From Candidatus Kaiserbacteria bacterium (GTDB lineage Bacteria; Patescibacteriota; Minisyncoccia; Phycocordibacterales; UBA2100), in the NCBI GenBank assembly GCA_963767115.1, contig CAVYCR010000012.1, positions 16,598 to 80,597 on the forward strand: a DNA stretch of 64,000 bases, given 5' to 3'. Within the stretch, counting starts at the first letter, position 1; every line of letters starts with the position of its first letter. Below are positions 11,273 to 30,344 of the stretch, in pieces. The notes under the pieces are model-generated. The model did not search any database and was not told the DNA's origin. It saw only the letters and a list, made by a program, of their open reading frames with translations. The position numbers were made by a program, and so were the translations under genes.

Positions 11273-12034
11273 TCAAGATGTAGATATTGAATCTTGCTTG
11301 AGTGTCTTCAAGGCCTCTTCAACAGTAGTCATAAACTGCGCGGGGAAAATAATCGTCGAATTCTTCTCGGTGGCGATCTCGGCCATGGTCTGAAGCGTGC
11401 GCAGCTGAAGTGCTACAGGATGCGCAGTGATCACGTCGGCTGCTTCGCCGAGCTTGGTCGCCGCTTGGAACTCCCCTTCTGCCGCGACGATCTTGGCGCG
11501 GCGCTCGCGCTCAGCCTCCGCTTCTTTCGCCATCGCGCGCTGCATGTTGTCGGGCAGTGTGATGTCTTTGATCTCGACCGCGGTCACCTGTGTGCCCCAC
11601 GGCTCGGTGTGCGAATCGATCACGTCCTTGATCTGCTCGTTGATCGTCGAAGTGTCGGAGAGGAGCTGGTCGAGGCTGAAGCGGCCGACGACGTTGCGCA
11701 CCGTCGTCTGGCTGATCTGGTTGATCGCGCTCTGCACATTTTCGATAGCGATCACGGCCTTCTCCGGGTCCATGATGTGATAGTACGCGACCGCCGCGAT
11801 GTCGATCGAGACATTGTCTTTCGTAATGATCTTCTGCGAAGGGATCTGCATGGTAATGGTGCGGAGCGACACACGCGTCATTGTCTGAAAAAGCGGAAAG
11901 ACGAGCGTGAGCCCCGGCCCACGCACGCCGGTAAACTTGCCGAGGGAGAAGACAACGCCGCGCTCGTATTGGCGCAAAACCCTGATCGAACCGAGGATGT
12001 AGAGTGCGACGAGGCCGACGATGATCCATGTCAT
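11273..12034 (-). CDS. SPFH/band-7 (stomatin/prohibitin-like) membrane protein
   Basis: 253 aa. N-terminal TM helix then …[17 protein letters not shown]…GPGL…[15 protein letters not shown]…[12 protein letters not shown]…, the classic SPFH domain. Confidence 0.85.
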
Positions 12035-12078: not shown

Positions 12079-12289
12079 TTTTGAGGCCACAGTGGGAGTT
12101 CCACGGATAATTTCCTCGCCGTCGCTCGGAAATTTCCGTGGCCGAGCTCGCCGCCCGCGCTACTGCGCGGGACCCCGGCACCACAAGAGTACTTCCATTT
12201 TTCCAATCGGAATACCGCTAAGAAAAATTGGTCGCTGCGCTTTGCAACTCCCACCCTCAAAACTGCGTTTTGAGGCCACAGTGGGAGTT
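12079..12289 (-). repeat. 22-bp direct duplication of the tRNA-Cys 3' end bracketing a 167-bp insert made of tRNA-trailer repeat sequence
   Basis: TTTTGAGGCCACAGTGGGAGTT occurs at 12079-12100 and 12268-12289. The second copy is the 3' end of tRNA-Cys. The insert 12101-12267 carries a minus-oriented unit (…CGCGCAGTAGCGCGGGCGGCGAG-CTCGG-CCACGG…CCGTGG). Confidence 0.8.
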
Positions 12290-12345
12290 GCACCCACCCA
12301 ATAGCGGTTTTGCAGACCGCCGCGTTGCTACTTCGCCATATGGCC
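12273..12345 (-). tRNA. tRNA-Cys (anticodon GCA), non-canonical T-loop
   Basis: Reverse complement: acceptor GGCCATA/TGTGGCC (one G-U), anticodon stem GCGGT/ACCGC, loop CUGCAAA. The T-arm GTGGG-TGCAACT-CCCAC has G rather than U at position 55. Confidence 0.75.
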
Positions 12346-12454
12346 TATGTGCGTGTACTGTATCACAAAACAGCGGTATCATGCGCATGTCCGCCTCCGC
12401 CCCACGGCTTCGGCGTGACGAAGGCAGCCCTCGCTCAAGCTACGGCTTGCCGAA

Positions 12455-12536
12455 GCCGGGATGATGAAACTGGTAGACATAGGGGACTTAAAATCCCCAG
12501 ACGCAAGTCGTGTGGGTTCGATTCCCACTCCCGGCA
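12455..12536 (+). tRNA. tRNA-Leu (anticodon TAA)
   Basis: Acceptor GCCGGGA/TCCCGGC, anticodon stem GGGGA/TCCCC, loop CUUAAAA, long variable arm, T-loop TTCGATT. Confidence 0.85.
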
Positions 12537-12539
12537 CAC

Positions 12540-13190
12540 ATGAGATGGATTTTTCATAGGCGGTCTGTACAGACTGAGAAAAACGGCGCGCTCAGCGTGC
12601 AGACTATTCTCGGGACTACGCGGATCCTCAGCGGCTCTATCGAAAAGAGTGGTCCTGCTCTCACGAAGGTAATTGGGCTTGCTTTGAGAGAAGTCAGGGG
12701 TCGCATCCGACCAAACCCTTCTGTATTATTCATTGGTCTCGGAATGGGAGGTGGCACCTACGAGGTATATAAGCTCTTTGATGGAGCGTGCATCACCGCT
12801 ATCGAGTATGATTCCGATATGATTTCTTTTGCGAAAGAATTCAAGCCGTGGCAGCCGTTTCCCGAGCCCACAATACTCTACCGGGACGCGGCCGCGGTCC
12901 TCAAGGATCTGGCGCGCGGTGCTTTTGACCTCGTCGTAGTAGATATATTTGAACTGACCGAGGCCGACGATTGGAAATCGAGCCGACCCTCTCACCTGCT
13001 ACTCCAAGAAGAATTCATCGCGGATCTCAAGTGCGTGCTCAAACAAGACGGGTTGGTCGTCGTGAATGCTTTCCGCAATCCCGAGTACCTCGCGAATCTC
13101 AGTGATCATTTCCACACTGAGACCAGTCTCATCGGCGAAAATCATATCGGATATTTTTCTCACAAGCCTGAGACTGAATCATTACTATGA
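12540..13190 (+). CDS. spermidine-synthase-like SAM-dependent methyltransferase-fold protein
   Basis: Start at ATG 12540, just after the tRNA. VLFIGLGMGGGTYEV…ITAIEYDSDMISFAKEF…DLVVVD matches the Rossmann motif I/II layout of spermidine-synthase-like enzymes. Confidence 0.5.
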   Translation: MRWIFHRRSVQTEKNGALSVQTILGTTRILSGSIEKSGPALTKVIGLALREVRGRIRPNPSVLFIGLGMGGGTYEVYKLFDGACITAIEYDSDMISFAKEFKPWQPFPEPTILYRDAAAVLKDLARGAFDLVVVDIFELTEADDWKSSRPSHLLLQEEFIADLKCVLKQDGLVVVNAFRNPEYLANLSDHFHTETSLIGENHIGYFSHKPETESLL

Positions 13191-14095
13191 CAGACATCGA
13201 TGCTATGCCTGCAGAGTTACTGCCGCGTGAACTGTGGGGCCCGGCGGGATACCAGGAAGTCGAGATGTTTGCTCCATGGTACATGTTTGCCCGGCGTGTC
13301 GGACCGGAGAAAGAAATAGTGCGAGTCGGACTCTGGCCGGTCTGTAGCGAATGGCATTCGTCTCGGAAAGAACCTCTGAAGAATGCGGCGGGTCATCGAT
13401 GGCCAGGGATGCAGATTGTTTATTGGAACAAATTTGAAGACTCTCCAGCCGAGAAGGGGTGGTCGCGAGTGACGCAGTCTCCTCGCGCCAAGATAGGATA
13501 TGTAATACTCGAAGCAGAAAAGGCATATTATGCGTCATGGTCCCCGCGCATGCGGACTCATAGAAGAAACCAGTGGCTCAAACTTCTGGGCGAAGGAGTA
13601 TACTCGATTGAGACAATCGACAAAGCAAGTTTTGTCAGCGCCTTTAGTACGAGTGATTCGGTCAGGAAGTTTGACGCACGTCATCGGCGCGGATATCGCA
13701 AGCTCCTTGATACATGCACCGGAGATACGGAGTTTTATGTGATGCGACGTTCAGAAGACGGCTCGATAGCCGCAGGCAGGGCCGTCGCATACAACGTACG
13801 ACACAAGACCGCCGAAGCGCTCGTTTATTTTCATAATTTCCGTAAGACGGATCTGCACACGGCAGTAGGTCTGTGGGATCATCTCTATAGAGAAGCAAGC
13901 CAAAAAGGCATTCGCTATATCACTTTTGGAGAATCGTGGATGAAAGGAAGACCGGAGGCGTGGAAGGGATTCTCTGATTTCAAATCAAAGTTCGGTTTGC
14001 GGTACTTCTACCTGCCGAGTACTCTCTGCCGTATCGAGATCACCAACCCATTCCATTCCCTCTTCAAGAAATGTAATACTTATAAAAAAGATTGA
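13187..14095 (+). CDS. FemAB-like / GNAT-fold acyltransferase (tentative)
   Basis: 302 aa, overlapping the upstream gene by 4 nt. The C-terminal …GIRYITFGESW…WKGFSDFKSKFG… resembles the conserved FemAB/Acetyltransf_6 tail (G.…FK.…FG). Confidence 0.4.
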   Translation: MTDIDAMPAELLPRELWGPAGYQEVEMFAPWYMFARRVGPEKEIVRVGLWPVCSEWHSSRKEPLKNAAGHRWPGMQIVYWNKFEDSPAEKGWSRVTQSPRAKIGYVILEAEKAYYASWSPRMRTHRRNQWLKLLGEGVYSIETIDKASFVSAFSTSDSVRKFDARHRRGYRKLLDTCTGDTEFYVMRRSEDGSIAAGRAVAYNVRHKTAEALVYFHNFRKTDLHTAVGLWDHLYREASQKGIRYITFGESWMKGRPEAWKGFSDFKSKFGLRYFYLPSTLCRIEITNPFHSLFKKCNTYKKD

Positions 14096-15290
14096 CGAGT
14101 GCATCTGCTACAGTACGGACCACACGTTCGTCGGTCTCAGCATGTATATCGATGCCGGGTAAGTTGTTGATCTCGAGAACGGCAGAGCGTTGTGTGTACC
14201 ATGCACGTGATATGTCCTCCATAAGGACATCGACTCCGGCGCAATGTATGTCTATGTACTCAGCTATAGACTCAAATAAAGCCTTGTTTTCAGGATGCAT
14301 ATCATGAGTCTGATCGATCGTTTCGGCCCCCAATCGAAGGAAGGGGTATTTTTGCAGTTCAATCCTGTGCCCACGGGAAGGCACGTCTTCGTATTGCATT
14401 CCCGATTCTTTCAATACAGATAGCATCGTTTCATCTTGTGGTATTTTCCAAGTAAGCGAAACGTGGCTCTGAGATGCATGTCGAGAATCGTGAGCGTTCT
14501 TTGCTACGAGCAATTCGTGAATGCTCGATACGCCGTCCCCTACTACATGCGCGGTATCATAGCGCGCGCAGGCGATATATCTCTTGTCGATCAAAGTAAC
14601 ACGATACGCACGGGTCTCAGGTAAATATGTTTCTATGAGAAATCTCGGCTGATACTCGAGCGCCCGCGAGACCGCTTCTCTCAACTGCGCAACTGTCTTG
14701 ATAGCGAGCGTGACGTGGCGTCCGTACGTCCCGGCGTCAGGCTTCACTACGAGTGGAAAACCAAATTGCACTGGTACTTCTCTGAGAGCTCGTTCTTTTT
14801 GCCAGAACCAATAAGCCTTCCCAGCAGCAACAGGAAATCCACCCGTCGCCAAATACTTTTTTATCGTATGCTTGCGCGCGACAAGCGCCGCCTTCGGTCC
14901 GTCGAGAAATCCCGCCGTCGGGTAGGCTTCGCAATAATATATGCGGCCCTTCCAATACAACACGACATGTTCGGTATATCTATTTCTTATCATTAGTATT
15001 TTGCAACGTAAACCTCTCTCCCGAGCAGTCTGTACAAAAAAACGTGTACGTGGTTCCAGTCGATTCAAGTCTTGTTCATCGTTCAAATCTCCACAACGAA
15101 GCATGACGACAGCACGTATGAGAAATATCGCCACGGCATTTTCTAACCAATATGGGATATGCCGGCCTCGAGGTATACAATAACTAACCAGAGAATCGAT
15201 CCATGTGATGATATGAATCGAACGAGATGCTTCGCAATCAGAGCAAATGGTATCGGAGGCCATATACGCCATTATAAGCGTACCTCTCAA
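14064..15290 (-). CDS. ATP-grasp ligase (cyanophycin-synthetase-N/RimK-like)
   Basis: 408 aa. FGFPLVVKPDAGTYGRHV…RFLIETYLPETRAYRVTLID…HVVGDG…AGVDVLMEDI…AVLEINNLPGI is the typical ATP-grasp core. Confidence 0.65.
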   Translation of the reverse strand: MRGTLIMAYMASDTICSDCEASRSIHIITWIDSLVSYCIPRGRHIPYWLENAVAIFLIRAVVMLRCGDLNDEQDLNRLEPRTRFFVQTARERGLRCKILMIRNRYTEHVVLYWKGRIYYCEAYPTAGFLDGPKAALVARKHTIKKYLATGGFPVAAGKAYWFWQKERALREVPVQFGFPLVVKPDAGTYGRHVTLAIKTVAQLREAVSRALEYQPRFLIETYLPETRAYRVTLIDKRYIACARYDTAHVVGDGVSSIHELLVAKNAHDSRHASQSHVSLTWKIPQDETMLSVLKESGMQYEDVPSRGHRIELQKYPFLRLGAETIDQTHDMHPENKALFESIAEYIDIHCAGVDVLMEDISRAWYTQRSAVLEINNLPGIDIHAETDERVVRTVADALVNLFYKYYIS

Positions 15291-15344
15291 TCCAAGATAC
15301 TGATCCCCTTATCAAAGAAACAATTTCATGTAAAATGCCTCAAT

Positions 15345-15417
15345 CCGCCCGTAGCTCAGTTGGTAGAGCAGTCGCCTCTTAAGCGAACGGTCGTTGGTTC
15401 GAATCCAACCGGGCGGA
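15345..15417 (+). tRNA. tRNA-Lys (anticodon CTT)
   Basis: Acceptor CCGCCCG/CGGGCGG, D-loop AGCTCAGTTGGTAGAGC, anticodon loop CUCUUAA, T-arm GTTGG-TTCGAAT-CCAAC. Confidence 0.9.
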
Positions 15418-16360
15418 CACTATAGGACTTTGCGAGTAGATTTCCTCATAATCGCTTTGGTTCATGCGGTCTTTTTGAGGTTCGAGCGCTGCGTGAATAT
15501 CGCGTATCGCATCCGCGAGCCTTCGCATGGGCAAAAGCGTTTTCTCCACGTCAATGCCCACTATTCTGTCTTTCAGCGTGAGGTTCGAGCCGATCGCAAG
15601 GAAGATGCGGCGGCGCTTCTCCAAACTGCCATTCTCAAACTCCTCTTTGGCGCGGGTAACGAACTTAAATGCGCTTTCCATGTTGTTTGCCCAGCGCGTG
15701 ATCCGCGCATCCGTATCGTTCAAGAGTCCAAAGCGGCGTTTTTTCTCCTTGAGCCAGTGTTCCTTCTTTTCTCGGTACTCATCCTCGCTCAACTCCTCAC
15801 GAGCCCGCATATCGGAGTATCGGTCGAGCATCTGTACCGCCTCATCGTAGGATTTTTGCTGCGTGGTGCGTATACCCTCGCGCAGGTCGATCTCTTTTGC
15901 GTTTTCGTTCTCCAGCCACTTCATGCCCCATTGGTGGAAACTGTCGGGAAACTCGAACTTCATCAGCTTGTCGGTTATCTGCTCCATCAATTTCGACTCT
16001 TCGATTGAACCCTGCGTGCACGGCCCACTTTTTTTGGTGCAGTGATAGTAGATGTAGCGGTGGACGTTGCCGTTTTTCTGCGTCTTTATTTTCTCCTCGG
16101 CGGTGATCGCCAAGCCACACTCGCCGCATTTCATCGTGCCGATAAAGGCGAACGCGCGGCTTTTTGGCCGAGGTCGTCCGCGCCTGCCGAGCAATGCCTG
16201 CACTCTGTCGTACTCGTCTATCGTTATCATCGGCTCGTGTGCGCCCTGATACCAGTTGCCGCTTCCGCGCGGCCACTCAAACGAGCCGTAGTAAAACGGG
16301 TTGGTGAGCAGGTGGTAGATGTTGCTACGCGCCATCAGTCTCGACTTGCTCCTCTTGTGG
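15379..16360 (-). pseudogene. large serine recombinase, C-terminal two-thirds only (catalytic resolvase domain missing)
   Basis: …RLMARSNIYHLLTNPFYYGSFEWPRGSGNWYQGAHEPMITIDEYDRVQALL…GTMKCGECGLAITAEEK…YIYYHCTKK… gives the recombinase-domain end, zinc ribbon and coiled coil. Upstream of about 16360 the 539-aa ORF is read-through with no resolvase motifs. The last 13 codons are tRNA-Lys sequence. Confidence 0.75.
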
Positions 16361-16384
16361 GGTCGCATCCGGAGCCCCCATTCG

Positions 16385-16606
16385 GCCGCATTCCTCAGTC
16401 GCGACGAGAAAATGCCGTATGTGCGGCTCGCCGCGCGGAAGATCGACGCGCTCAAACTGCTTCTGATGGTTCTCTGGGAAACGAAATCACTCGAGCCGAA
16501 GAAATATGCCGCGCTCTCGGAAAAGATGGACGAAATCGGCAAGATGCTCGGCGGATGGGGCGGACAGCTTAAAAAACAAAACTCCCCCGCCAAAAAAGAT
16601 AATTGA
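16385..16606 (+). pseudogene. four-helix-bundle protein (Avd / 23S-IVS-protein family) C-terminal fragment
   Basis: …RLAARKIDALKLLLMVLWETKSLEPKKYAALSEKMDEIGKMLGGWGGQLKK matches the C-terminal half of CPR-type four-helix-bundle proteins. The N-terminal half is absent, and the fragment lies head-to-head with the truncated recombinase. Confidence 0.5.
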
Positions 16607-16628
16607 CGGAGGAGAAACGGAGAGAGTA

Positions 16629-16763
16629 GCGGAGACGGAACACGATGCGATTGTCGAGCTTCCAGCGATCGTCGGGATTTGTCCAATCGTTGTTGAGCCA
16701 CAACTTGCCGTCGTCGTTGCGCTTCACATCGAAGACGTTCGGGTTGCCATCGGAGTCGGGATT
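16629..16763 (-). repeat. DGR template repeat (TR)
   Basis: 135-nt repeat of 17107-17241. It holds 34 adenines (minus strand), 17 of which are substituted in the other copy. No other position differs. In the VR frame it translates to an Asn/Asp/Lys-rich peptide. Confidence 0.85.
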
Positions 16764-17061
16764 GTGCGCCGCGCCATCTATGCCACTGCCCGTCGAATAC
16801 TCTCAGGGCTGAATCTAATTCGGGATCTAAAATCCACCAGCGCAACGCACCAAGTATCTTCGTTTTTTGAAGTTTCTGCATACACCACGCCGTTTCAAAC
16901 CGTAATCGGAAACGTTCCGGATGTATGGATACTGGTTTCGGCAGCGGGAAACCGTAATCGCCCGCATATTCGCCTACTACCGCTCCTAAGTGTATCAAAA
17001 AGAATGAGCCCTCGGCGCGAGATGCGTCGAGGACTCGAATGCAAGGGCAAAGCCCAAAGGA

Positions 17062-17790
17062 TCAAGTGCAGTGCAAGGGTAAAACAGCCGAAGCCGAGGA
17101 TACCTTGCGGAGACGGAACACGACGCGATAGTCGAGCCCCCAGCGACCGTCGGGACTCGTCCAACCGTCGTAGAGCCACAACCTGCCGTCGTCGTTGCGC
17201 TCCACAGCGAAGACGTACGGGTGGCCAACGGAGTCGGGAATCCGTTCCATCGCAATCCACAGGACTTCGCCTTTCGGCTGATCCTTGTATTGGATTGCGA
17301 GATGCGGGCCGGTCTCAGCGGGACAGAGATCGAGGACGTGGCCGTCGAGGTTCGCTTCGCTCCACGCCGTGAGGCGCTTCACGTCGAAAAGCTCGGTGGT
17401 CGTCGGGTTCTCGGTGAAGCCGAGATCCGCCGGGCACAGGTCGATCAGCGTGATCATCTCCGGCTCGGCGAGCGTGGTGAACAGCTTGTGGTTCATCATG
17501 CTTTTGGCGTAGCCGCTGATTTCGCGGGTTGCCGTTCCGAGCTGCACGATGAGATCGTCCTTCGACACGCCGCCGATCAAGATCGGCATCGTGCGGATGA
17601 AACGACCGCGCAAGCCACTCGCAAATGGGGTGAGCTTGCCTTCGGTCATGCCCTGCAGAGTAGCGATGACACGCTCAGGATCGAGCGCGGTATCGTTCTG
17701 TAGGAAAACCTGTCGCTGCAACTCAGCGATTCTCTTTGAGATCCGGTGAGCTTGGTCGCGGTCAACAACGAACCTTTCGGTCGTCGCCAT
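17062..17790 (-). CDS. DGR target (variable) protein, no signal peptide
   Basis: Start at ATG 17790 (MATTERF…, RBS GGAGG). The C-terminal roughly 45 aa are encoded by the VR. The …NRIVFRLR ending is reminiscent of the conserved end of C-type-lectin-fold VRs; the fold assignment is an inference. Confidence 0.7.
   Translation of the reverse strand: MATTERFVVDRDQAHRISKRIAELQRQVFLQNDTALDPERVIATLQGMTEGKLTPFASGLRGRFIRTMPILIGGVSKDDLIVQLGTATREISGYAKSMMNHKLFTTLAEPEMITLIDLCPADLGFTENPTTTELFDVKRLTAWSEANLDGHVLDLCPAETGPHLAIQYKDQPKGEVLWIAMERIPDSVGHPYVFAVERNDDGRLWLYDGWTSPDGRWGLDYRVVFRLRKVSSASAVLPLHCT
17107..17241 (-). repeat. DGR variable repeat (VR) at the 3' end of CDS 17062..17790
   Basis: In frame with the target CDS (…IPDSVGHPYVFAVERNDDGRLWLYDGWTSPDGRWGLDYRVVFRLR). 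It differs from the TR only at TR adenines (A>G x10, A>T x5, A>C x2). Confidence 0.85.
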
Positions 17791-17953
17791 AACAACCTCC
17801 ACTATGATTGCTGCTGCGAAATCGCACTTAGGCATCGCGTTTGCTTTGCCGCAGCGGAAAGAAGCTCTAACAGAGCCGCTTTCAGCTGTGGCAAATGTCT
17901 AAACCGCTGTGTGAAAGATCGAATCACGATTATACATTTGTGCGGACTCCGTG

Positions 17954-18301
17954 TCAACTTGCTGCGGTAATGTGTCCGGCCTCAAGCATCCCCTTAAACC
18001 TTCGACTTCGATATTCCAGTCCAAGGCACTTCCTGCAGCCGATTGCACCCGTGAACGGATGCACAAAAAGCGTTCCGGCGCGGTGAGCGCCGAGCGGACA
18101 CTTGAACCAATATCGAGTACCGCCGAATTGTGTCTTTGAGGGCATCAGCTCGATTGTTAGATTGTAGAGCGCGATCTCTGTCGCGATCAGTTCCTTTTTC
18201 AGCCTCGCTTTTGCTTTGCGGAGATACGCAGAGATCGAGACGCGCTGACAGTCCTCCACCAAAATTGGTGTTCCTGAATCGTATGGGCGTGATACTTTCA
18301 C
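17954..18301 (-). CDS. hypothetical protein with putative zinc ribbon
   Basis: 115 aa. …RYWFKCPLG…GCRKCLGLEY gives a C-x-n-C…C-x2-C arrangement. The start overlaps the stop of the upstream gene by 4 nt. Lies inside the tRNA-Lys island. Confidence 0.4.
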   Translation of the reverse strand: MKVSRPYDSGTPILVEDCQRVSISAYLRKAKARLKKELIATEIALYNLTIELMPSKTQFGGTRYWFKCPLGAHRAGTLFVHPFTGAIGCRKCLGLEYRSRRFKGMLEAGHITAAS

Positions 18302-18924
18302 GGTTTTGCAGGTGTCGCGTTGATTTGCTGGTTGCCCGCCACAAAAGCGTTCTTGGCTCTTATATTCACCTCGAGCTGCGGTTGCTTGATCTGCCTCAAC
18401 ATTGCGAACGACGATAAGAACTGCCTGTGCGCTCGGTCAATCTGTTTGCTCATCACTGCAAGGAGGTGGTTCTGCTCAGAGGAAGTGGAATCTCCGGGTA
18501 CATAACTGTTGTACCGCTTTGAACTATCGATATATCGAACAAACGAGCCTGCGATGGTTTCAGCAAGCATTTTCTCCATGTGAGTTGAGCAGTTGTTTTC
18601 CCGTATGATCTGGGCACAGAGCTCTTTTGCCATACCGCGATATTTTTCATTAAAGCTGTCCATCAGAGCAACATGAGTCTCGACCTCAAGCGCGAACATT
18701 GCAGATAGCGCCGGTTCCTGAAGCTCCCTTTGCTCCTCATCTTTATCACGCCTACCTTTGGATTTCGGTCTTGAAAAGATCTCGCTACAGCGCTCAAGCG
18801 CGTCGCCAAGATCTCCTTTTACTTTTGAGTTTTGTAGCAGTAGCGCTTTTGCGTCTTCTGGCGTGTAGCGTTTTACGAGAGCCTTCGATTTCTGTATTGG
18901 CGTGCTTGGGCTGGGCATCTGCAT
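18298..18924 (-). CDS. hypothetical protein (island-encoded)
   Basis: 208-aa ORF, lower GC than the core genome. No recognisable family. Confidence 0.4.
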   Translation of the reverse strand: MQMPSPSTPIQKSKALVKRYTPEDAKALLLQNSKVKGDLGDALERCSEIFSRPKSKGRRDKDEEQRELQEPALSAMFALEVETHVALMDSFNEKYRGMAKELCAQIIRENNCSTHMEKMLAETIAGSFVRYIDSSKRYNSYVPGDSTSSEQNHLLAVMSKQIDRAHRQFLSSFAMLRQIKQPQLEVNIRAKNAFVAGNQQINATPAKP

Positions 18925-19034
18925 AAAGTAAATCTGACGTTGTGCTGCTCATGCAACGATATCAAAAGCCGTGCAGTAAAACGGGCTCGGCTCTCCGGCG
19001 GCCTCTATAAAAATGGTTCGAGCGTCGTACAACA

Positions 19035-19230
19035 GGGCGGACAAGTACACAACAACGTTGCGGGGCAACGTTTTGTGACTTGTCCGGGCCGCAGCTCGTT
19101 TCGCGAGCTCGCGAAACGAGCGAGGCGGGGTCGCGGAAACTCTTTTGAGGCGACAAAAGAATTATCCGTGACGACATGAACTCTCCAAGGCGGGCCCGCG
19201 CAAATTTTCAGTAGAAAATTATGCGTGGGG
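19035..19230 (+). repeat. tRNA-trailer structured repeat, array B (three units: 19035-19090, 19122-19172, 19187-19230)
   Basis: Unit 1: GGCGGACAAGT…ACTTGTCC. Unit 2: GAGGCGGGGTCGCGG…CCGTGAC. Unit 3: AAGGCGGGCCCGCG-caaattttCAGTAGaaaattatg-CGTGGGG. Outer stems differ in sequence but stay complementary. Confidence 0.7.
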
Positions 19231-19263
19231 ACAAGATATCAAGTATACTATTCGTAAGCTGCG

Positions 19264-22200
19264 ATGAAGGAGCGCCACATCGATAATCAAAAAGGATCAC
19301 TGCGCGCGTTGCTTACGACGACCTTTCTGGCGTCGCTTCTCTTTACCACTATGACAGGCACAGCATTCGCAAGTGCTCCGCCAAGCTGGTTGCAAGCGCA
19401 CCCGCCGTTCCATCTAAGAATCAGAAGAATAAGTGCTAATCAAACAATAAGTCCAAACGCTCTGACGCCACAAGGTCTCACCCCGGCGCAGATAAAAAGC
19501 ATCTACAATCTTCCCTCGACGGGAGGGTCTGGAACGATCGCACTCATCGAGGCGTATGACAACCCTAATGCCGAAAGCGATTTAGGGACCTTTGATACGC
19601 AATTCAGTCTCGCGCCGTGTACCACCGCAAACACCTGCTTCACAAAACATCAGATGTCGGTGAGCACATCGACCAACAGCGGCTGGACCGTCGAATCGTC
19701 GCTCGACGTAGAATGGGCGCATGCGATCGCTCCCAACGCGAAGATTCTTCTCGTGGAAGCACAGAGCTCGAGTGATAACGATCTTATCGCCGCGGTCGAT
19801 TATGCGCGCAACCAGCCGGGCGTCGTTGCGATATCGATGAGCTGGGGCAGTGCGGAATTTTCGGGCGAATCATCCGACGATTACCACTTTGTCTCGCCGT
19901 ACGGAGCCGTATTCTTTGCTTCCACCGGTGACACAGGGAGCGGTGTAGCGTGGCCGGCCGTTTCCACAAACGTGGTCGCGGTCGGCGGAACCACACTTAA
20001 TTTCACTGGTAATACCTTTACCTCAGAGACAGCGTGGAGTGGGAGCGGCGGAGGCTTGAGCAAATATGTGAACGAACCCAGCTATCAATTACTGTATGGC
20101 GTGCCGCAAGCAAACGGCTTTCGGGCAATTCCCGACGTCTCCTACGACGCAGATCCCAACTCCGGTTTTTCTATCTACGACAGCACGGGCTATCAAGGCC
20201 AGTCGGGCTGGCTCGTTGTCGGTGGGACAAGTGCCGGCGCGCCTCAATGGGCTGCAATTGATGCTCTCGCGAGTACCACGAATAATACAAACCTGTATGC
20301 TGTTGCTTCGAGCAGCGGCAGCTATGCTTCAGACTTTCGGGACATTACAAGCGGGACCAACGGGAGTTGCGGATTCGATTGTACCGCACAGGTGGGTTAT
20401 GATTACGTAACCGGGCTCGGCAGCCCTCTCACCGATATCTTCAACACTCCGCCGACATATGCCCATGTCACACCGGCAACAGGCGCAGTGAACGTCTCGA
20501 TAGACACAACATCATATGCGGGGGGCACGGCCACGTGGACCACTCTTACCGGACCGGTGATTCAGGAAACGTCCGCTGATCAAATCACTTCGGGCGTTTA
20601 TACGCTCACATTGCCTTCAGGCTGGCAGTTCAATACGACACACAATGTAAACATAACAACAGGAGGCGGCACCTCTTTGAGCGTGGCGTCGACGACAATA
20701 ACGCCAAATGCCAGCAGTCTTTCCTTTGACGTGACGGCGGTATCAGCAACCGGAACCGCGACACTCACATTGAGTGGCATTCAGGTACAGCCGACCGGAA
20801 CCAGTTCGCCGTCGATCGGCACGATCACGTATTCCGGCCCCACGATTGCCGGAGCCGACAACACCACCTCGTTCGGTACACTTTCAACGACGGCAGGCGC
20901 CTCCACGACGGTGAATGTGGAAACTGTGGCAAACGGCACTGGTACTGTAGTCCAAGCGCAGAATCTTGCCTCAGGAAGCAGTACTACGGTCTATACAGTT
21001 ACCAGGGACCAATTCGGAAATTTTGTCGCAAATGCTCCCGCCGTCTGGTCTCTCGTATCCAAAACTGGCGGCGTTGCAAACGGAGACCTCTCCGCAAGTA
21101 GCAGCCAAGAAAGCGCAACTCTGACGGGAACCTTGGACGGCAGCTGCAAGATCCATGCCTCCATTGGCGGTCTTGCCAGTGTTGATTCGGGCTTGATCAC
21201 GGTCGTTCCCGGTACAATAACCAGCCTTTCGCTTTCTCCACAGAGTGCGACCACCACGACAGGCACTACGGTAACGTACTCCGTACAGGGATTTGACACG
21301 CAAGGCAACGGCGCAACGACCACCGCGAGCAGCACCTTTTCTATATCATCGGGTGCAGGCGGGTCCTTCAGCGGGTCCACATACGCTCCGCAGAACACGG
21401 GGAATTGGATTGTTTCCGCTTTGTATGGGAGCCTCACGGGTAGCTCGACCCTCACTGTCATACCGCAAGTTGCACAGAAGCTCATCTTCTCCACTGAGCC
21501 CACAAGCACTGCCGCGAGTTCGAGCCTGACCACAACAGTCAGTACTGAAGATTCATTGGGCAATCTAGATACAAATTACTCCGGCATCATAACGCTCGAC
21601 GTTTATAACAACCCGGGACTTTTACAAGGAGTGACATCCACTCCCGCCGTCGCCGGCGTGGCAGCATTTAATGCCATCACGATCAATCAGCCCGGAAGCG
21701 GTTATGTTTTGGACGCGACTGCCGCCGGATTAACGAGTACCACATCGAGCGCATTCGATATGACCGCTGCGCCATCGGTGCTTCCCGCGGCAGGTACCTA
21801 CACTTCCAATCAAAGCGTCGTGCTTTCCGCTGCGCCCGGATCAAACGGCTTGTACTATACAGTTGACGGATCCACTCCCGATTGCACCGTTCCCACAGGC
21901 ATAAGCGGAACAAGCAGCGTATCGATTTCCGTTGCCTCAACTGAGACAATTTCCGCCCGCTCTTGCTATGCAGGCGCAGTTCAATCGAGCGTAGGATCCT
22001 TCGCGTACACATTGCAATGCACTGTGCCTTCGGTAAGTAACGGTTCCGTCGCGAGTTATCCCGCATGCACTATTACCTGCAATGTGGGTTACTCGCTTTC
22101 GGGAAATTCGTGCGTCGCTGTTGGCGGCGGTAGTGGCGGGGGCGGGGGTGGAGGCGCGCCCATCAGTGCCTCCGCAATTTCTTTAGCGTCGACCTCAACA

Positions 22201-22848
22201 ACTGTTGCTACGAATACCGTGCAGGTTGTATCGAACACCGCGGCGGCTCTCGCAAGCACATCAAACACCGTGCGCGTTCCCGCCGCCACGAGTCTCGTAT
22301 CGACCAACGATGGGGTCGCACTGCCTAGCTTTTCGCGCAATCTCTGGAAAGGCATGACCGACCCGCTCGTTCGTTCACTACAGGAGTTGCTTAATCACCT
22401 CGGCTTTACTATCGCGCAGAGCGGCCCGGGCTCTCCGGGCGATGAAAGCGATTATTTTGGGGCAGCCACGCAGCGCGCACTGATCGCATTCCAGAGTGCC
22501 CACGCTATCACGCCCGCGAGCGGCTATCTCGGGCCGGCCACGCGAGCACTCATTAGCACGATGACGAGCAGTACAACGCCGCCGATCCAGACAACCCAAG
22601 TAGCGAGCAACACGCCAAGCACGCCGACGCCGTTCACCCGCAATCTCCAGCTCGGCTCTCAAGGCAGCGATGTCGCTTCGCTCCAGCAATTGCTGATTAC
22701 CGCGGGATATTCGCTTCCTGCTGGTGCGACCGGCTATTTCGGCACGCAGACACGCGAAGCGCTCATGCAATATCAGGGCGCTCACGGCATCACACCCGCC
22801 AGCGGATACTTCGGACCTGCGACACGCGCTTTCGTCGCAGGACAATAA
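19264..22848 (+). CDS. secreted multidomain S53 (sedolisin-like) peptidase with Ig-like repeats and two C-terminal peptidoglycan-binding domains
   Basis: 1194 aa with a signal peptide. The S53 core shows (…ESSLDVEWAHAIAPNAKILLVEA…STGDTGSG…GGTSAGAPQWAA…). Long T/S-rich beta-repeat region, poly-Gly linker, and two PG_binding_1-like repeats (…YFGAATQRALIAFQ…; …YFGTQTREALMQYQ…). Confidence 0.8.
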   Translation: MKERHIDNQKGSLRALLTTTFLASLLFTTMTGTAFASAPPSWLQAHPPFHLRIRRISANQTISPNALTPQGLTPAQIKSIYNLPSTGGSGTIALIEAYDNPNAESDLGTFDTQFSLAPCTTANTCFTKHQMSVSTSTNSGWTVESSLDVEWAHAIAPNAKILLVEAQSSSDNDLIAAVDYARNQPGVVAISMSWGSAEFSGESSDDYHFVSPYGAVFFASTGDTGSGVAWPAVSTNVVAVGGTTLNFTGNTFTSETAWSGSGGGLSKYVNEPSYQLLYGVPQANGFRAIPDVSYDADPNSGFSIYDSTGYQGQSGWLVVGGTSAGAPQWAAIDALASTTNNTNLYAVASSSGSYASDFRDITSGTNGSCGFDCTAQVGYDYVTGLGSPLTDIFNTPPTYAHVTPATGAVNVSIDTTSYAGGTATWTTLTGPVIQETSADQITSGVYTLTLPSGWQFNTTHNVNITTGGGTSLSVASTTITPNASSLSFDVTAVSATGTATLTLSGIQVQPTGTSSPSIGTITYSGPTIAGADNTTSFGTLSTTAGASTTVNVETVANGTGTVVQAQNLASGSSTTVYTVTRDQFGNFVANAPAVWSLVSKTGGVANGDLSASSSQESATLTGTLDGSCKIHASIGGLASVDSGLITVVPGTITSLSLSPQSATTTTGTTVTYSVQGFDTQGNGATTTASSTFSISSGAGGSFSGSTYAPQNTGNWIVSALYGSLTGSSTLTVIPQVAQKLIFSTEPTSTAASSSLTTTVSTEDSLGNLDTNYSGIITLDVYNNPGLLQGVTSTPAVAGVAAFNAITINQPGSGYVLDATAAGLTSTTSSAFDMTAAPSVLPAAGTYTSNQSVVLSAAPGSNGLYYTVDGSTPDCTVPTGISGTSSVSISVASTETISARSCYAGAVQSSVGSFAYTLQCTVPSVSNGSVASYPACTITCNVGYSLSGNSCVAVGGGSGGGGGGGAPISASAISLASTSTTVATNTVQVVSNTAAALASTSNTVRVPAATSLVSTNDGVALPSFSRNLWKGMTDPLVRSLQELLNHLGFTIAQSGPGSPGDESDYFGAATQRALIAFQSAHAITPASGYLGPATRALISTMTSSTTPPIQTTQVASNTPSTPTPFTRNLQLGSQGSDVASLQQLLITAGYSLPAGATGYFGTQTREALMQYQGAHGITPASGYFGPATRAFVAGQ

Positions 22849-22891
22849 TATCGCGAACATTGGGCATGTGCCGCTCCGCTGTTTTTAGGCT

Positions 22892-24694
22892 TTAGTGGCT
22901 GATATTGATCTGCACTGCCTGCTGCGCAATCATGTTGCCGATGCCGTCTTTGGCGACGAAGTTCACCGTATAAGGCCCGCTCCCGCGCCATGTCCACTGC
23001 GAGAGATCGACGTCGGACTCCATATGCGGGCTGTCTGTAGATGAGGGCTGCATCTGGTTGAGCGCTCCGCTATCGACCTGCCAGTACATGGTGTATTGCG
23101 AAGTAGGAAGAGTATTCACGACAGCCTTAAATGGCTGCACGCCCGAGACACTCACGCCATTGGTCGGCCACCACACATGTATTATTTGTCCGCCCTGACT
23201 ACTCGTCGATCCCCCGCTCGATCCAGTCGAAGCGCTTACAGCGATAGTTGCTGCACTGTTATTCCAAGTATACAGTGTCGACCAATCGCTACTAAAGACC
23301 CCGATCTTGATCGTATAGGTGCCGCTGCTACTGGGTGTCCAGGAAACCGCGTACTGTAGATTTTGGCCCGATGAGAAATTCTGCGATCCGAATGTGTGCT
23401 GCAACACCTGCGCACCCGATGAGTTATAGACTTCAATATCGACATTGGCGTTTGAGATTGCACTGCCCTGGTCGGTGATCGAGGCCGTGAGATTCACGCT
23501 CCCGCCAGTAGAAGCCGAAGATGGATTCGCGCCGCCAGCGACAGCAAATGCCGCGTTGCTGGTAGTTCCTCCATTAGACCCTCCGCCATTTGAAGCCGGC
23601 GGCGACAGGAAGTATTGCTGTATCGTCTGCTCCGCCGGTTTGTTGGCTATCAAATAATCGGTATCGCCGCTTCCTCCGGAAGAAGGATTGCTGTTGTCGT
23701 ACCAGATGCCGAGCCCTTGCATATATGAATAGTTGTTCCAGTATTGCAGGAGCGCCGTATAATCGTTCACCTGTTCCTGCGGGTCGTAGCTGCCGCCCAT
23801 GCTCGAATTCCACGGCTCGAGATGGGCGTTTGTGACGCTTCGGTAGCCAACTTCGGAGAACAGGATCGGCTTGCCCCACTGACTCTCAAGCGGCTCTATC
23901 GTCGAGCTGTTGATCGTACTCCAGTCGTTCTCCAAGTTTGCCACAGAATCATCGCCGTCGAGGTTGTAATACGCCGAGATGCCGATATAGTCGAGGTCGC
24001 TCCAGAAACCGATCTGCGGCGGCTCGTCTACGGCACTGCTGCCGCCCCAATTGGCGTCGTAGAAGAGCTTGCCGTGGTAGACGCTTCGCACCGCGCTGAT
24101 CATACTCTCCCATGCCGAGGTATTGCCCGGATTGACCGTTGCCGAAGACATGTCGATGAGCTCGGTGCCGATGCAGTATTCCTCAACGCCGTATAGTTCT
24201 GCCATCTGCGCATATTTCATCAAAGCGGTCTTGTAATTGCTAAACCAAGTCGTGCGGTCGCTCGGGTTTATAGTGGCACGCCAAGCACCGTCTTCGGGGT
24301 CGAGGTGGAGCTTGAGTATCACGCCCATCCCCTGGGCATGCGCGTATTGGATCGCTGAGATAAGCGAGGAGTCAGTCGGCGTGTTGCCGCCCGGAGCGAC
24401 ATCGGTCGAGTAGATGTTGGACTGGTAGTACGGGATCACGAGCGTGACGTAGTTGAAGCCGAGCGATTTCGCATGCGTCACTACTTGTTCGAAGCCGCTA
24501 CTGCCGAAATCGCTCGGCGAATCGGGATAGATACTGATACTGCGCTGCCATGAAGCTATGTCGGCGTTTGCAAATCCCGCAGGCAGCAGAATCATCGCGG
24601 TAAGCGTCGCGATGCATGCTCGCGCGGCTAATGCGCGATAGCCGAATATTTGGAAGCTGCTTCTAGTAGGACTCTTTTGCGCAGCCGCTTTCAT
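22892..24694 (-). CDS. secreted glycoside hydrolase (TIM-barrel, clan GH-A-like) with C-terminal Ig-like domains
   Basis: 600 aa with a signal peptide. …GFNYVTLVIPYY…GMGVILKLHLDPEDG…EEYCIGTELI…PILFSEVGYRS… suggests NE…E catalytic glutamates on a (beta/alpha)8 barrel. Two C-terminal beta-sandwich-like repeats. Confidence 0.65.
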   Translation of the reverse strand: MKAAAQKSPTRSSFQIFGYRALAARACIATLTAMILLPAGFANADIASWQRSISIYPDSPSDFGSSGFEQVVTHAKSLGFNYVTLVIPYYQSNIYSTDVAPGGNTPTDSSLISAIQYAHAQGMGVILKLHLDPEDGAWRATINPSDRTTWFSNYKTALMKYAQMAELYGVEEYCIGTELIDMSSATVNPGNTSAWESMISAVRSVYHGKLFYDANWGGSSAVDEPPQIGFWSDLDYIGISAYYNLDGDDSVANLENDWSTINSSTIEPLESQWGKPILFSEVGYRSVTNAHLEPWNSSMGGSYDPQEQVNDYTALLQYWNNYSYMQGLGIWYDNSNPSSGGSGDTDYLIANKPAEQTIQQYFLSPPASNGGGSNGGTTSNAAFAVAGGANPSSASTGGSVNLTASITDQGSAISNANVDIEVYNSSGAQVLQHTFGSQNFSSGQNLQYAVSWTPSSSGTYTIKIGVFSSDWSTLYTWNNSAATIAVSASTGSSGGSTSSQGGQIIHVWWPTNGVSVSGVQPFKAVVNTLPTSQYTMYWQVDSGALNQMQPSSTDSPHMESDVDLSQWTWRGSGPYTVNFVAKDGIGNMIAQQAVQINISH

Positions 24695-24761
24695 CTGCTT
24701 ATTGTATGCGCAGATGAGATAAGTTTATGTGAAGTCTTTTAGACTTTGTCCTAAAAACCTC

Positions 24762-25205
24762 TTAGTAGTAATACGACGATGAGGGGCTGTACCCGTAGTT
24801 GTATCCGTAAGAATAGTTGTACGATGGCATCATGTAGCTGTACGTCATCGGATAACTAGAGCTGTATCCGGTGTTGTATGTGTACGACGGGGAGTACGAA
24901 TATTGTTGTTGCGGATAATAGCTGGAGTAGGAATACGGCACATATCCGCCACAGGGCGTGCTTGAGTAGAAACCGCCAGTGCAAACGAAACCGCCGTTAT
25001 TGTCTGACTGACCATAATTGGGCGAATAATAATAGCCAGTATTCTGCATATATTGGTACTGCTGATACTGCGGTTGGTATTGCGACTGATACTGATACGT
25101 CGGCTGATACTGATACTGGTAGTAACTTCCTGCTGAGGCGGTCAACGGCATTATGGTAAGGACTGCTCCTGCGACTACTGATGCGATTGCTGTTATATTC
25201 TTCAT
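24762..25205 (-). CDS. secreted Tyr/Gln/Ser-rich low-complexity protein
   Basis: 147 aa. Signal peptide MKNITAIASVVAGAVLTIMPLTASA, then YYQYQYQPTYQYQSQYQPQYQQYQY…YSYGYNYGYSPSSSYYY; about one residue in three is Tyr. Confidence 0.55.
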   Translation of the reverse strand: MKNITAIASVVAGAVLTIMPLTASAGSYYQYQYQPTYQYQSQYQPQYQQYQYMQNTGYYYSPNYGQSDNNGGFVCTGGFYSSTPCGGYVPYSYSSYYPQQQYSYSPSYTYNTGYSSSYPMTYSYMMPSYNYSYGYNYGYSPSSSYYY

Positions 25206-25278
25206 AAGTACATACTATAGAAAGTCTCCCGAATAATCAATGAAATTTGAGCTACATAATGCTACTATACTCTCGTAA

Positions 25279-25360
25279 GGGCAGATGGCGGAATTGGTAT
25301 ACGCGCCAGCCTTAGGAGCTGGTCCCGCAAGGGTTGGGAGTTCGAGTCTCCCTCTGCCCA
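25279..25360 (+). tRNA. tRNA-Leu (anticodon TAG)
   Basis: Acceptor GGGCAGA/TCTGCCC, anticodon stem CCAGC/GCTGG, loop CUUAGGA, long variable arm, T-loop TTCGAGT. Confidence 0.85.
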
Positions 25361-25488
25361 CCGAAGCGAAGCGAAGAGTGGTCAGAGAGCACAGTGCGGG
25401 GCACTGTGCGTGGAGACTCGAAAGCCGGACCCACCTTGGGCGGGGAGGCGGGGTCGCGCAAAATTTCAGCAGAAATTTATGCGTGACC
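25361..25488 (+). repeat. tRNA-trailer structured repeat, array C (unit 25445-25488)
   Basis: GCACAGTGC-ggg-GCACTGTGC hairpin, GGAGACTCGAAAGCC module, then GAGGCGGGGTCGCGC-aaaatttCAGCAGaaatttat-GCGTGACC. Confidence 0.7.
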
Positions 25489-25530
25489 GAGCTCCCTCTA
25501 CTTATAGATAGTATGAAGGAAAGCTAAAAA

Positions 25531-29413: not shown

Positions 29414-29547
29414 GCCGTAATTATACCGCGCCGCAAGCATTATTTGTTGCGCTGCTGGGGAGATGTACAGTGTGCGGAAACCCAAGCACAAAAGACGACG
29501 TGAAAACGCCTTCGAAAAATCTCGCGGGCATCATCTTTGTTTTGAAT

Positions 29548-30334
29548 ATAGTGATGTCGGACATCGCTATTTATTGTATTTGGAATTGGATGATACAATA
29601 GTGTGTAATGGGGGTCGGGGTCTACCATGCTCTGAATCGCGGCGTCGACAAACGTCAGACTTTTATGTGTGAAATAGATTATGTGCGTTTCGTGCATGAT
29701 CTCTACGAATTTAACGACGTACATCCAGCAACAAACACATGGTATGAATTCAAAAATAGTGATGTCCGACATCCCTATATCGTGCGCGAACGGCAACCCA
29801 TCGTGCAGATTCATGCGTGGTCGCTTATGGAAAACCACTACCACTTGCTCCTCTCAGAAATCCGCGAAGGTGGCATTACGTCATTCTTACGAAAAATTAA
29901 TACCGGGTATACGAATTATTTCAATGACAAATACGAACGAAGCGGCGTATTGTTCCAAGGCAAGACGAAGAAGATTCTCATCCATGAGGAAGCTCATTTC
30001 TTACATATGCCGCATTACATACACTTGAATCCGCTCGATTATCTGGAAGGCGCAAGCGATTGGCGCTCATATGCCCTAGAAGACCCAGTTGCCGCGCTCG
30101 AGTATCTTTCTACCTATCGTTGGAGCAGCTATCTCGATTACTGCAACATGGATAATTTTCCTTCTATCATAGAGAAGGGTCTGTATTCGGATATATTTCC
30201 AGACTACGCCCCAACGATCAAATCCTACTTACAATCTTTAGATAGACCTTCAATCGATCTCGAACCAGTGACTTTGGAATAAAAATCAATACTATGGCTT
30301 ATTTCTTATATATTAGTGATGTCCGACATCACTA
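29548..30334 (+). mobile_element. RAYT/IS200-like Y1-transposase cassette 1 with flanking REP-type hairpins
   Basis: Hairpins ATAGTGATGTCgGACATCGCTAT (29548-29570) and TAGTGATGTCcGACATCACTA (30314-30334) flank the transposase in opposite polarity. A third copy (29756-29778) lies inside the CDS. Confidence 0.65.
29608..30282 (+). CDS. HUH/Y1 tyrosine transposase (REP-associated, IS200-like fold)
   Basis: 224 aa. YHALNRGVDKRQTF…, HUH motif MENHYHLLL, and catalytic-Tyr helix HMPHYIHLNP. Confidence 0.7.
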   Translation: MGVGVYHALNRGVDKRQTFMCEIDYVRFVHDLYEFNDVHPATNTWYEFKNSDVRHPYIVRERQPIVQIHAWSLMENHYHLLLSEIREGGITSFLRKINTGYTNYFNDKYERSGVLFQGKTKKILIHEEAHFLHMPHYIHLNPLDYLEGASDWRSYALEDPVAALEYLSTYRWSSYLDYCNMDNFPSIIEKGLYSDIFPDYAPTIKSYLQSLDRPSIDLEPVTLE

Positions 30335-30344
30335 TTTTTGATCA

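Follow-up and report, generated by a model that had tools for sequence, protein, structure and literature searches.

Anatomy of the tRNA-Cys locus

This work concerns the trailer of the tRNA-Cys(GCA) gene in a 64,000-nucleotide stretch (hereafter the window) of the Candidatus Kaiserbacteria contig CAVYCR010000012.1, where the 3' end of the tRNA is found again downstream of a gene-less insert, and where this insert and its ends appear, from sequence comparison, to be a degenerate member of a phylum-wide family of elements. The 22-mer TTTTGAGGCCACAGTGGGAGTT, read on the plus strand, occurs exactly twice in the 64-kb window (X1 and X2 in Table 1), as had been stated in the initial annotation of this DNA, and no third match with up to 3 mismatches is present in the window, with 0 expected in 100 dinucleotide-preserving shuffles. 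Given the position of tRNA-Cys on the minus strand, the proximal copy X1 comprises tRNA positions 57-73 followed by C and by AAAA of the trailer, and the tRNA coordinates thus bear out that the repeat consists of the last 17 nt of tRNA-Cys plus trailer. The intervening 167 bp (12101-12267) hold only short, overlapping and spurious open reading frames (ORFs), as any G+C-rich stretch does, in agreement with the earlier statement that no ORF lies there.

Overlooked at that time was a third segment, called here X', which is an antisense copy of the tRNA-Cys 3' end and begins 5 nt past the tRNA-borne 22-mer. It is the complement of tRNA positions 54-65 and 71-74 plus trailer; only the complement of UGUGG is absent, and UGUGG (positions 66-70) is left unpaired in this copy. 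Behind X' follow an A-like motif and an A+U-rich hairpin (12194-12242 together), which resemble the 5' part of a truncated unit; the hairpin itself (12194-12231) may belong either to a long P3 region or to the 5' portion of a first, truncated unit, the helices being named as in the family consensus given below. The core unit then contains a hairpin at 12154-12171, a B-like motif GCGAGCUCGG-CCACGG and the P4 hairpin at 12101-12141, and it stops exactly at the downstream 22-mer, reading ...CCGUGG followed by AACUCCCAC. The initial annotation's unit ending at the duplicated fragment is thus confirmed in its exact end; it is an atypical and partly degenerate unit, with a broken P2 junction and a 3' stem that ends in CCGUGG. 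At tRNA-Cys, X' and X are perfect and the junction is decayed. Folded alone, the trailer RNA gives a multi-branched minimum free energy structure closed by X':X2 (z = -4.6), and when the tRNA is included in the fold, X1 becomes available as an alternative partner of X'. A promoter and terminator scan of the tRNA-Cys locus gave nothing above chance.

The element family behind tRNA and tmRNA genes

Read in the orientation of the tRNA, the members of the family have the order tRNA, antisense copy X', three-way-junction core and sense copy X. The core is made up of AAAG-S-CGGAGC, the hairpin P3, GCGAG-S'-CGGGGUCGCG, the hairpin P4 and YGUGACC, with X starting right after its ...GUGACC end, and the whole consensus may be written as X' - AAA - G-S-C-GGA-GC - (P3) - GC-GA-G-S'-C - GG - GGUCGCG - (P4) - YGUGAC-C - X. 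In class 1, X begins at C56/R57 of the tRNA; in class 2 it begins at about C72 and continues into the trailer, using only the last tRNA nucleotides (...GCAC, then AAG), with (C)UUGUGC as X' and CCACAAG as the distal segment. The left end of the duplicated stretch is constant, tRNA C56 being the last C of GTGACC, and its right end lies anywhere between the tRNA end and a point more than 75 nt past it, for a duplication of about 5 to more than 75 nt. X' is often split by a small hairpin, P0 (22-25 nt, 9 bp, CUGC or UUCG loop). The hairpins between tRNA and core, P0 and terminator-like ones, have a CUGC/UUCG tetraloop very often, with A/U pairs flanking (...CAAACUGCUUUG...), for example at L044, L048, L128, L073 and L028 in our numbering of the loci. 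Two general layouts were rejected at this level: a hairpin-core-hairpin design, given that a second antisense copy past the distal repeat was found in just 13 of 119 elements (vs 3 in the control), and a DNA transposon with terminal inverted repeats and target-site duplications (a miniature inverted-repeat transposable element), given that the inverted segments X'/X copy the local tRNA and differ between copies, that there are no shared terminal repeats, and that the duplication has a constant left end and no fixed length.

In metagenome contigs, the pattern GCGAGSCGGGGTCGCG, 18-46 nt, GTGACC returned at least 120 loci. Among the matches listed, the pattern scan gave at least 128 units. For 87 of them, a tRNA on the same strand ends less than 400 nt upstream, and in 49 of these 87 the sequence immediately behind GTGACC repeats the 3' end of that tRNA exactly, over 10 nt or more (mostly 17-26 nt). 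This upholds the initial annotation's proposal that the trailer repeat family is tied mechanistically to the duplication of tRNA 3' ends. The host tRNAs are of at least 18 types (Arg, Leu, Ser, Val, Pro, Ala, Tyr, Asn, Met, Ile, Cys, Lys, Glu, Gln, Thr, Trp, Phe and His). A second sample, unselected for the element, was obtained by scanning genome contigs for an 18-nt tRNA-Cys end, and consists of 25 loci from Kaiserbacteria, Parcubacteria and 'Saccharibacteria' metagenome-assembled genomes (MAGs). Most of these loci have a plain single-copy tRNA-Cys; L006 and L028 show the architecture of the window at tRNA-Cys, with an inverted T-arm copy, hairpins, a unit ending in GTGACC and AACUC(UC)CCACUGUGGCCUC, and in L004 and L009 this layout is found at tRNA-Leu(taa). 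With the covariance model R1, which was used for the copy counts, there are 17 matches in the 25 tRNA-Cys-anchored loci, all 17 of them 20-108 nt after a same-strand tRNA, so that elements stand behind about one fifth of the 91 tRNAs in these loci, tRNA-Lys(ctt) carrying one in 8 of these genomes. The 100 metagenome loci gave 115 R1 matches, and 76 of the 100 with enough upstream sequence have a tRNA called by ARAGORN within 250 nt; among the leftover matches, two follow tmRNA-like 3' ends that ARAGORN did not call and one follows a tRNA that it missed. The elements lie on the strand of the adjacent tRNA wherever one is annotated.

Annotated tmRNA genes are hosts in L029 (3104-3681, minus strand) and L078 (944-1504, plus strand), with the element 64 and 61 nt past the gene, respectively, and the occurrence after tmRNA genes indicates that the family tracks tRNA-like 3' ends in general. 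In L054 (8948-10287), about 1.1 kb separate tRNA-Gln from the element bearing its 3'-end copy, which suggests another insertion between tRNA and trailer element, like that at tRNA-Lys of the window (see below). This distribution also bears on the suspicion that, with a metagenome-assembled contig as source, the duplication is spurious and was produced by reads mis-joined at the tRNA: the same layout of tRNA, X', core and X recurs at tRNA-Cys in two other assemblies (L006 and L028), and independent assemblies have it behind dozens of other tRNAs, so that we regard such an artefact as very unlikely. In 2.9 million viral contigs, only one match was found, probably identical to metagenome locus L089, and a phage origin was rejected on this ground.

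The relatives also bear on the initial annotation in two respects. The T-loop UGCAACU of tRNA-Cys, described there as unusual, is normal in more than 20 related genomes and is therefore a lineage trait and not a property of the locus. As for an empty site with a single copy of the repeat, single-copy tRNA-Cys genes do exist in more than 20 relatives, and 2 relatives share the architecture; the flanks, however, are non-orthologous, and no exact empty site was recovered. The co-oriented SPFH/Band-7 gene starts 45 nt past X2 and lies outside the element. Its protein homologues carry the name Candidatus Paceibacterota, which, together with the MAGs that share the tRNA-Cys end, places the window in a genome of the Patescibacteria. 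The relatives that are 88-90% identical have another upstream context with tRNA-Cys absent, so this synteny route gave no ortholog locus. The tRNA neighbourhood Cys / Leu(taa) / Lys(ctt) / Leu(tag) is conserved (L004-L028 and window 12272-25362; Paceibacterota and Kaiserbacteria MAGs), with varying orientation and spacing. A duplication of another kind is seen in L008 (335-499, minus strand), where a tandem second tRNA-Cys has a mutated 5' half, an anticodon-loop insertion and an intact 3' part of 33 nt.

The pairing within the core was assessed by writing the three-way-junction structure onto a MAFFT alignment of 25 copies. Of the alignment cells, 88% are paired, vs 31-40% in slid controls; compensatory changes occur in 29 of 40 pairs, and none of 500 shuffles reaches the observed values. 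The S and S' segments covary, being Watson-Crick in 91 of 96 cases, with 60 C-G and 29 G-C as the two main motif combinations. The ratio of G.U to A.C is 262:53 when all columns are counted and 90:53 after removal of those with fixed G.U, and this G.U excess, together with the position of the elements on the tRNA strand, points to the tRNA-sense transcript as the molecule that folds. The junction is closed by the helix P1, made of X' and X, whose register is fixed, as it starts at the last C of GUGACC and leaves 3 unpaired nt before G-S-C; the core also has conserved unpaired nucleotides. The trailer RNAs fold with z = -4.6 to -7.2. The independently found copies (L004-L028) vary at the B motif and GTGACC with compensation, e.g., GGGUCGGGA/UUCCUGACC. 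The helices thus covary on the tRNA-sense strand, and the family displays both the compensatory changes and the strand-specific pairing by which structured non-coding RNAs are generally recognised. A role as 5' untranslated region (UTR) or riboswitch of the downstream gene was rejected, because downstream genes are convergent as often as co-directional (45 vs 45).

The antisense segment X' is closely associated with the element, given that 59% of tRNAs with an element, vs 12% of those without, are followed by a stretch of 9 nt or more that matches the tRNA end exactly in inverted orientation. It is a true complement of the tRNA 3' strand and not a copy of the 5' strands, as evidenced by GAGGG in the X' of tRNA-Tyr, opposite a G.U pair, and by AGUUGCA in the X' of tRNA-Cys, for a non-palindromic T-loop. 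Usually X' is the complement of positions 56-65 abutting the core, and many copies cover those positions only; in the many copies that P0 interrupts, the complement of the acceptor strand 66-73 lies upstream of this hairpin, and with P0 skipped, 8 of 32 elements, vs 0 of 32 controls, match it at 7 or more of the 8 positions. Of 40 distal copies, 15 are followed by CCA, and in 7 of 32 (L081, L084, L099, L116, L050, L033 and L107) the distal CCA is present even though the functional gene encodes none, the reverse being seen in 0 of 8. X' and X together would make a perfect duplex, acceptor-like plus T-stem-like, that ends in the discriminator, in which P0 would replace the D and anticodon arms and the core would replace the T-loop. 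Since the tRNA itself is a second complement of X', either X':tRNA or X':X could form. Fold-back copying of X' was rejected as the origin of the distal copies, which agree with the tRNA at places where X' does not pair.

The 3' part of the tRNA, the apical and often terminator-like hairpin, and X' make a long hairpin on their own, and such long near-perfect palindromes centred on a terminator-like hairpin are what one would expect if the whole arrangement were a functionless by-product of local mutation, with template switching at the terminator hairpin making X' and continually correcting it, tandem duplication or slippage making the direct copy, and the core being a common terminator-type repeat. 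The identity of X1, X' and X to the tRNA without obvious need, and the existence of tandem and truncated units, would also fit. Nevertheless, the strong linkage of X' to the presence of the core, the conserved unpaired nucleotides and covarying three-way junction of that core, the P1 register that is fixed relative to it, and the case of L018, where P1 pairs are kept via G.U as the distal copy leaves the tRNA trailer, all speak against it, and we hold this explanation to be improbable.

The family is apparently undescribed, being set apart from the Rfam 15 families, ribozymes, omega-RNAs, group I/II introns and tRNA-like elements among them, and from the literature searched, in which no description of it was found. 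A gathering-threshold scan of the window with Rfam 15 gave tRNAs only, and E-value scans of the tRNA-Cys copy and two well-conserved copies gave only chance (microRNA-like) hairpin matches. Comparison by eye with hammerhead, twister, group II domain V, H/ACA, box C/D and retron msr/msd layouts yielded no fit, and these were rejected because CUGANGA or box motifs, a pseudouridylation pocket and an adjacent reverse transcriptase are lacking.

Other copies in the window and the recombinase island

The window has six R1 copies, at tRNA-Tyr, tRNA-Val (two), the tRNA-Lys trailer, tRNA-Leu(tag) and tRNA-Cys (Table 1), those at tRNA-Val and at 19077-19229 belonging to class 2. Units related to that at tRNA-Cys are thus located after tRNA-Tyr, tRNA-Leu(tag), tRNA-Val and the displaced tRNA-Lys end. 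A weak R1 match at 47143-47248 (minus strand; 19.1 bits, E 0.0095), away from tRNAs and within coding sequence, is probably due to chance.

Table 1. Coordinates of the tRNA-Cys locus, further family members and the tRNA-Lys island in the window
Feature	Position	Strand	Remarks
tRNA-Cys(GCA)	12273-12345 (Rfam) or 12272-12345 (ARAGORN)	minus	CCA not encoded; T-loop UGCAACU
X1, proximal 22-mer	12268-12289	minus	Exact repeat; tRNA 3' end plus trailer
5-nt loop CGCAG	12263-12267	minus	Caps the hairpin of the tRNA 3' end with X'; from sequence and folds
X', antisense copy of the tRNA-Cys 3' end	12243-12262	minus	UUUUGAGG-GUGGGAGUUGCA; from inverted repeats and folds
A-like motif AAAGCGCAGC	12233-12242	minus	One deletion relative to the family consensus AAAG-S-CGGAGC
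A+U-rich hairpin (CCAAUUUUUC...GGAAAAAUGG)	12194-12231	minus	From the fold and likeness to truncated units in L031 and L044
Core unit	12091-12196	minus	cmsearch with the family covariance model, 47.6 bits, E 4e-10
X2, distal 22-mer	12079-12100	minus	3' strand of closing helix P1; directly abuts the last stem of the core
SPFH/Band-7 gene	11273-12034	minus	Pfam PF01145, E 8.6e-44
Member after tRNA-Tyr	1580-1688	plus	91.8 bits; X' covers tRNA positions 54-74; distal copy decayed
Member after tRNA-Leu(tag)	25413-25498	plus	53.7 bits; decayed distal copy CGAGCUCCCUCU
Two tandem class-2 members after tRNA-Val	57709-57929	plus	57709-57791, 45.2 bits; 57821-57929, 84.5 bits
Two class-2 members after the displaced tRNA-Lys 3' end	19077-19229	plus	19077-19183, 78.6 bits; a partial one, 16.4 bits
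Island of about 3.6 kb at tRNA-Lys(ctt)	15345-19043		Recombinase and three further ORFs without Pfam match
tRNA-Lys	15345-15418		tRNA end of the island
Large serine recombinase, 539 aa	15379-16998	minus	Pfam Recombinase and Zn_ribbon_recom; 3' end overlaps the tRNA-Lys 3' half
Imperfect copy of tRNA-Lys positions 52-74	19014-19043		Other island boundary

The island at tRNA-Lys(ctt) shows what a true recombinase integration looks like in this genome. Beyond its distal boundary lies the native tRNA-Lys trailer with its two class-2 units; the family units have thus remained attached to the displaced tRNA end and do not belong to the attachment (att) sites of the island. A recombinase with att sites resembling the unit was not found: the one recombinase among the scanned ORFs of the window bounds its own island, with a different repeat. 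Within the island there is also a 133-nt direct repeat of 88% identity (16629-16761 and 17107-17239), shared by the 5' region of the recombinase gene and the ORF at 17062-17835, which may be a partial gene duplication. Elsewhere in the window, two small repeat sets were noted at 29545-30335 and 35621-36432, one consisting of three palindromic boxes AATATAGTGATGTCGGACATCGCTAT and the other of three copies of GAGGTTAAACCTCGACAA....

The island allows us to weigh what the initial annotation had proposed for tRNA-Cys, namely the remnant of an integrative element, similar to the cassettes of cis-mobilizable elements (CIMEs), with the two 22-mers as attL/attR cores and the recombinase gene lost. Direct repeats of the tRNA 3' end do flank a gene-less insert, most relatives have a single copy, and a large serine recombinase is present in the window. 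Nonetheless, the 167 bp contain no credible ORF, the recombinase of the window has its own 3.6-kb island with the family units outside, and the repeats are perfect, while a neutral remnant should decay along with its core. The same core, with matched copies, stands behind at least 18 tRNA types and tmRNA, when an element with a given attP would be specific to one tRNA, and neither the inverted copy nor the RNA-type covarying helices are accounted for by such a remnant. Because of these features, and of the old, diverged copies, the proposal is unsupported; it is largely refuted by the family-wide data, and we consider it very improbable.

Interpretation and comparison with known systems

The behaviour of the copies at orthologous loci is that of a long-established sequence. 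At tRNA-Arg(ccg) (L086/L107 vs L113), compensatory changes are found in P0, P2 (S/S'), P3 and P4, with X'/X still identical to the tRNA; at tRNA-Lys, the trailer bases ACG/AUG/AAA/AUA covary with CGU/CAU/UUU/UAU in X'; and in L018, whose distal segment has diverged from the trailer, most X' pairs are retained via G.U changes. Copies on the same contig are no more alike than copies on different contigs (mean identity 0.43 vs 0.45, p = 0.81), and recent intragenomic spread or homogenisation was not seen in this comparison of copy identity. The copies are therefore old, independently evolving and structurally constrained, and not a recently spreading repeat.

On these grounds, we lean towards the reading in which the 22-bp repeat is an arm of a co-transcribed, structured RNA element carried in tRNA and tmRNA trailers of Patescibacteria, or the candidate phyla radiation (CPR), with the role of an integration scar disfavoured. 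Such an element would be transcribed together with the upstream tRNA, and the sense copy X would keep the antisense X' off the tRNA, while X' and X would build a perfect-duplex mimic of the acceptor/T-stem minihelix, including the discriminator and, in some copies, CCA. The tRNA-processing machinery (RNase Z, RNase P or the CCA-adding enzyme) could recognise and excise the trailing RNA, or, alternatively, another factor that binds tRNA ends could bind it. A regulatory switch on tRNA folding or processing is possible in this scheme.

Several observations weigh against this co-transcribed trailer RNA. The gain of a tRNA-specific X'/X by each copy is left unexplained by it. The element is dispensable in cis, given that 3 of 25 tRNA-Cys loci and about one fifth of tRNAs carry one, and the tRNA-Lys of the window has been parted from its elements by the island. 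A terminator-like A-tract, hairpin and U-tract often lies between tRNA and X' and might end transcription before the element. Furthermore, the B motif and GTGACC do not vary in the metagenome set in part because the search pattern required them. At tRNA-Cys, a broken P2 together with perfect repeats is a better match to recent templating than to selection on the core, and tandem and 3'-truncated second units (L031, L044, L139 and L037), besides cores that are 95-98% identical behind different tRNAs, hint at copying; with the asymmetry of the distal CCA, these features keep a copying mechanism in play.

The main rival is accordingly a non-autonomous mobile element homing to tRNA and tmRNA 3' ends, whose X' would act as a guide pairing with the target, the 22-bp repeat being the target-site duplication. 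Staggered breaks or a restarting polymerase (target-primed or template-jumping copying) would keep the tRNA intact and duplicate the stretch from the T-loop (56/57) or the tRNA end to a variable downstream point. This explanation accounts better than the favoured one for the boundaries of the duplication, with its constant left end and a right end varying from 0 to more than 75 nt, and for the truncated units, where a series of 3'-truncated second units stands beside full tandem ones. The nearly identical cores behind different tRNAs and the perfect repeats around a decayed core at tRNA-Cys fit it as well, as do the variation in presence and absence among relatives at the same tRNA and the fact that tRNA and tmRNA 3' ends are classic targets of mobile DNA. 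In contrast, copies within one genome resemble each other no more than they resemble copies elsewhere, the divergence of orthologous loci is compensatory, with X/X' still following the tRNA, the viral contigs hold a single copy, and a duplication of 5 to more than 75 nt matches no known transposase. No transposase, reverse transcriptase or nuclease adjoins the elements or was found among the scanned ORFs of the window, and group II introns are reported to be absent from Patescibacteria (PMC13011429). Taking both sides together, we judge a homing element to be unlikely, more seriously to be considered, nonetheless, than the other rivals.

A more speculative proposal, to which we also give a low probability, is that these elements are previously unrecognised 'companion RNAs' of Patescibacteria, programmed for each tRNA and working as the guide or recognition module of an RNA-guided system that acts on tRNAs or tRNA genes. 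Their possible roles would be controlled unfolding or processing, quality control or modification of the T-arm and acceptor end, or RNA-guided self-templating insertion at tRNA 3' ends. If this were true, a structured RNA would be coupled to specific tRNAs by a mechanism that is new.

If the co-transcribed trailer RNA is real, a conserved structured RNA accompanies tRNA and tmRNA genes across a very large radiation of bacteria that is still poorly understood. Its design would be unusual, in that the core is constant whereas the helix closing it is built from a sense and an antisense copy of the 3' half of the neighbouring tRNA. This would bear on how the genome-reduced CPR bacteria process, check or regulate their single-copy tRNAs, and on the 're-programming' of an RNA or DNA element for each tRNA. 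We suggest keeping in mind that tRNA 3'-end duplications are routinely read as integrase footprints, an inference that would then be wrong here. In practice, the covariance model can annotate hundreds of intergenic regions that are now blank.

Each of the closest analogies among known systems appears to share one feature with the element and to fail on others. The genomic islands and CIMEs found at tRNA and tmRNA genes resemble it in having tRNA/tmRNA hosts, a direct repeat of the tRNA 3' end from the T-loop flanking an insert, and relatives in which the tRNA end is mostly single-copy. The element differs from them in lacking a recombinase, in having one core for all tRNA types with tRNA-specific repeats, in its extra antisense copy and RNA-type covarying helices, and in an insert of only about 110-190 nt; the 3.6-kb island with a serine recombinase at tRNA-Lys of the window likewise has a quite different appearance.

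Among RNAs, there are several that are linked to a tRNA and freed by tRNA processing, such as those of the plant dicistronic tRNA-snoRNA (small nucleolar RNA) genes, MALAT1/mascRNA, and the bacterial 3' external transcribed spacer of glyW-cysT-leuZ. The element is similar to these in being an RNA directly behind a same-strand tRNA, probably dependent on tRNA 3' processing and with tRNA-like helices, but we know of none among them that has sense and antisense copies of the neighbouring tRNA, or the three-way-junction core described here. The tRNA-like domains of tmRNA and of viral 3' ends are comparable in the acceptor-like plus T-stem-like stack that X'/X would form, with the discriminator and sometimes CCA, whereas in the element, the T-loop would be replaced by a large conserved junction, and the duplexes are perfect and copied from the adjacent tRNA. 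Attenuators and riboswitches with three-way-junction aptamers likewise have mutually exclusive pairings (here tRNA 3' half:X' or X':X) and a P1-closed junction that shares a strand with the alternative; the element, in contrast, has its alternative partner upstream, inside the tRNA, and its downstream genes are co-directional in half of the cases.

The RNA-guided mobile systems, that is, the IS110 bridge RNA, the tigRNA of TIGR-Tas and the omega-RNA of IS200/605 TnpB, are also structured RNAs with segments that match their own flanking target. CPR genomes do host TIGR-Tas systems, whose tigRNA guides have spacers of 8-12 nt flanked by box C/D motifs (PMC12045711). Unlike the element, these systems have box C/D-flanked spacers or a 3' guide by tnpB, and they lie beside a protein gene or in arrays; no IS110 recombinase or Tas (Nop-domain) gene stands next to the elements, and an identity with TIGR-Tas or the IS110 bridge RNA was rejected given that both the spacer/box architecture and the gene adjacency differ. 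Finally, the repetitive extragenic palindromic sequences and their hairpin-forming pairs (REP/REPIN) have in common with the element the many diverged extragenic copies located just after genes, hairpins kept by compensatory change, and long vertical inheritance; REPINs are, however, simple hairpin pairs recognised by a REP-associated tyrosine transposase (RAYT), with no tie to tRNAs and no copies of the neighbouring gene, whereas the element described here is a three-way junction tied to tRNA.

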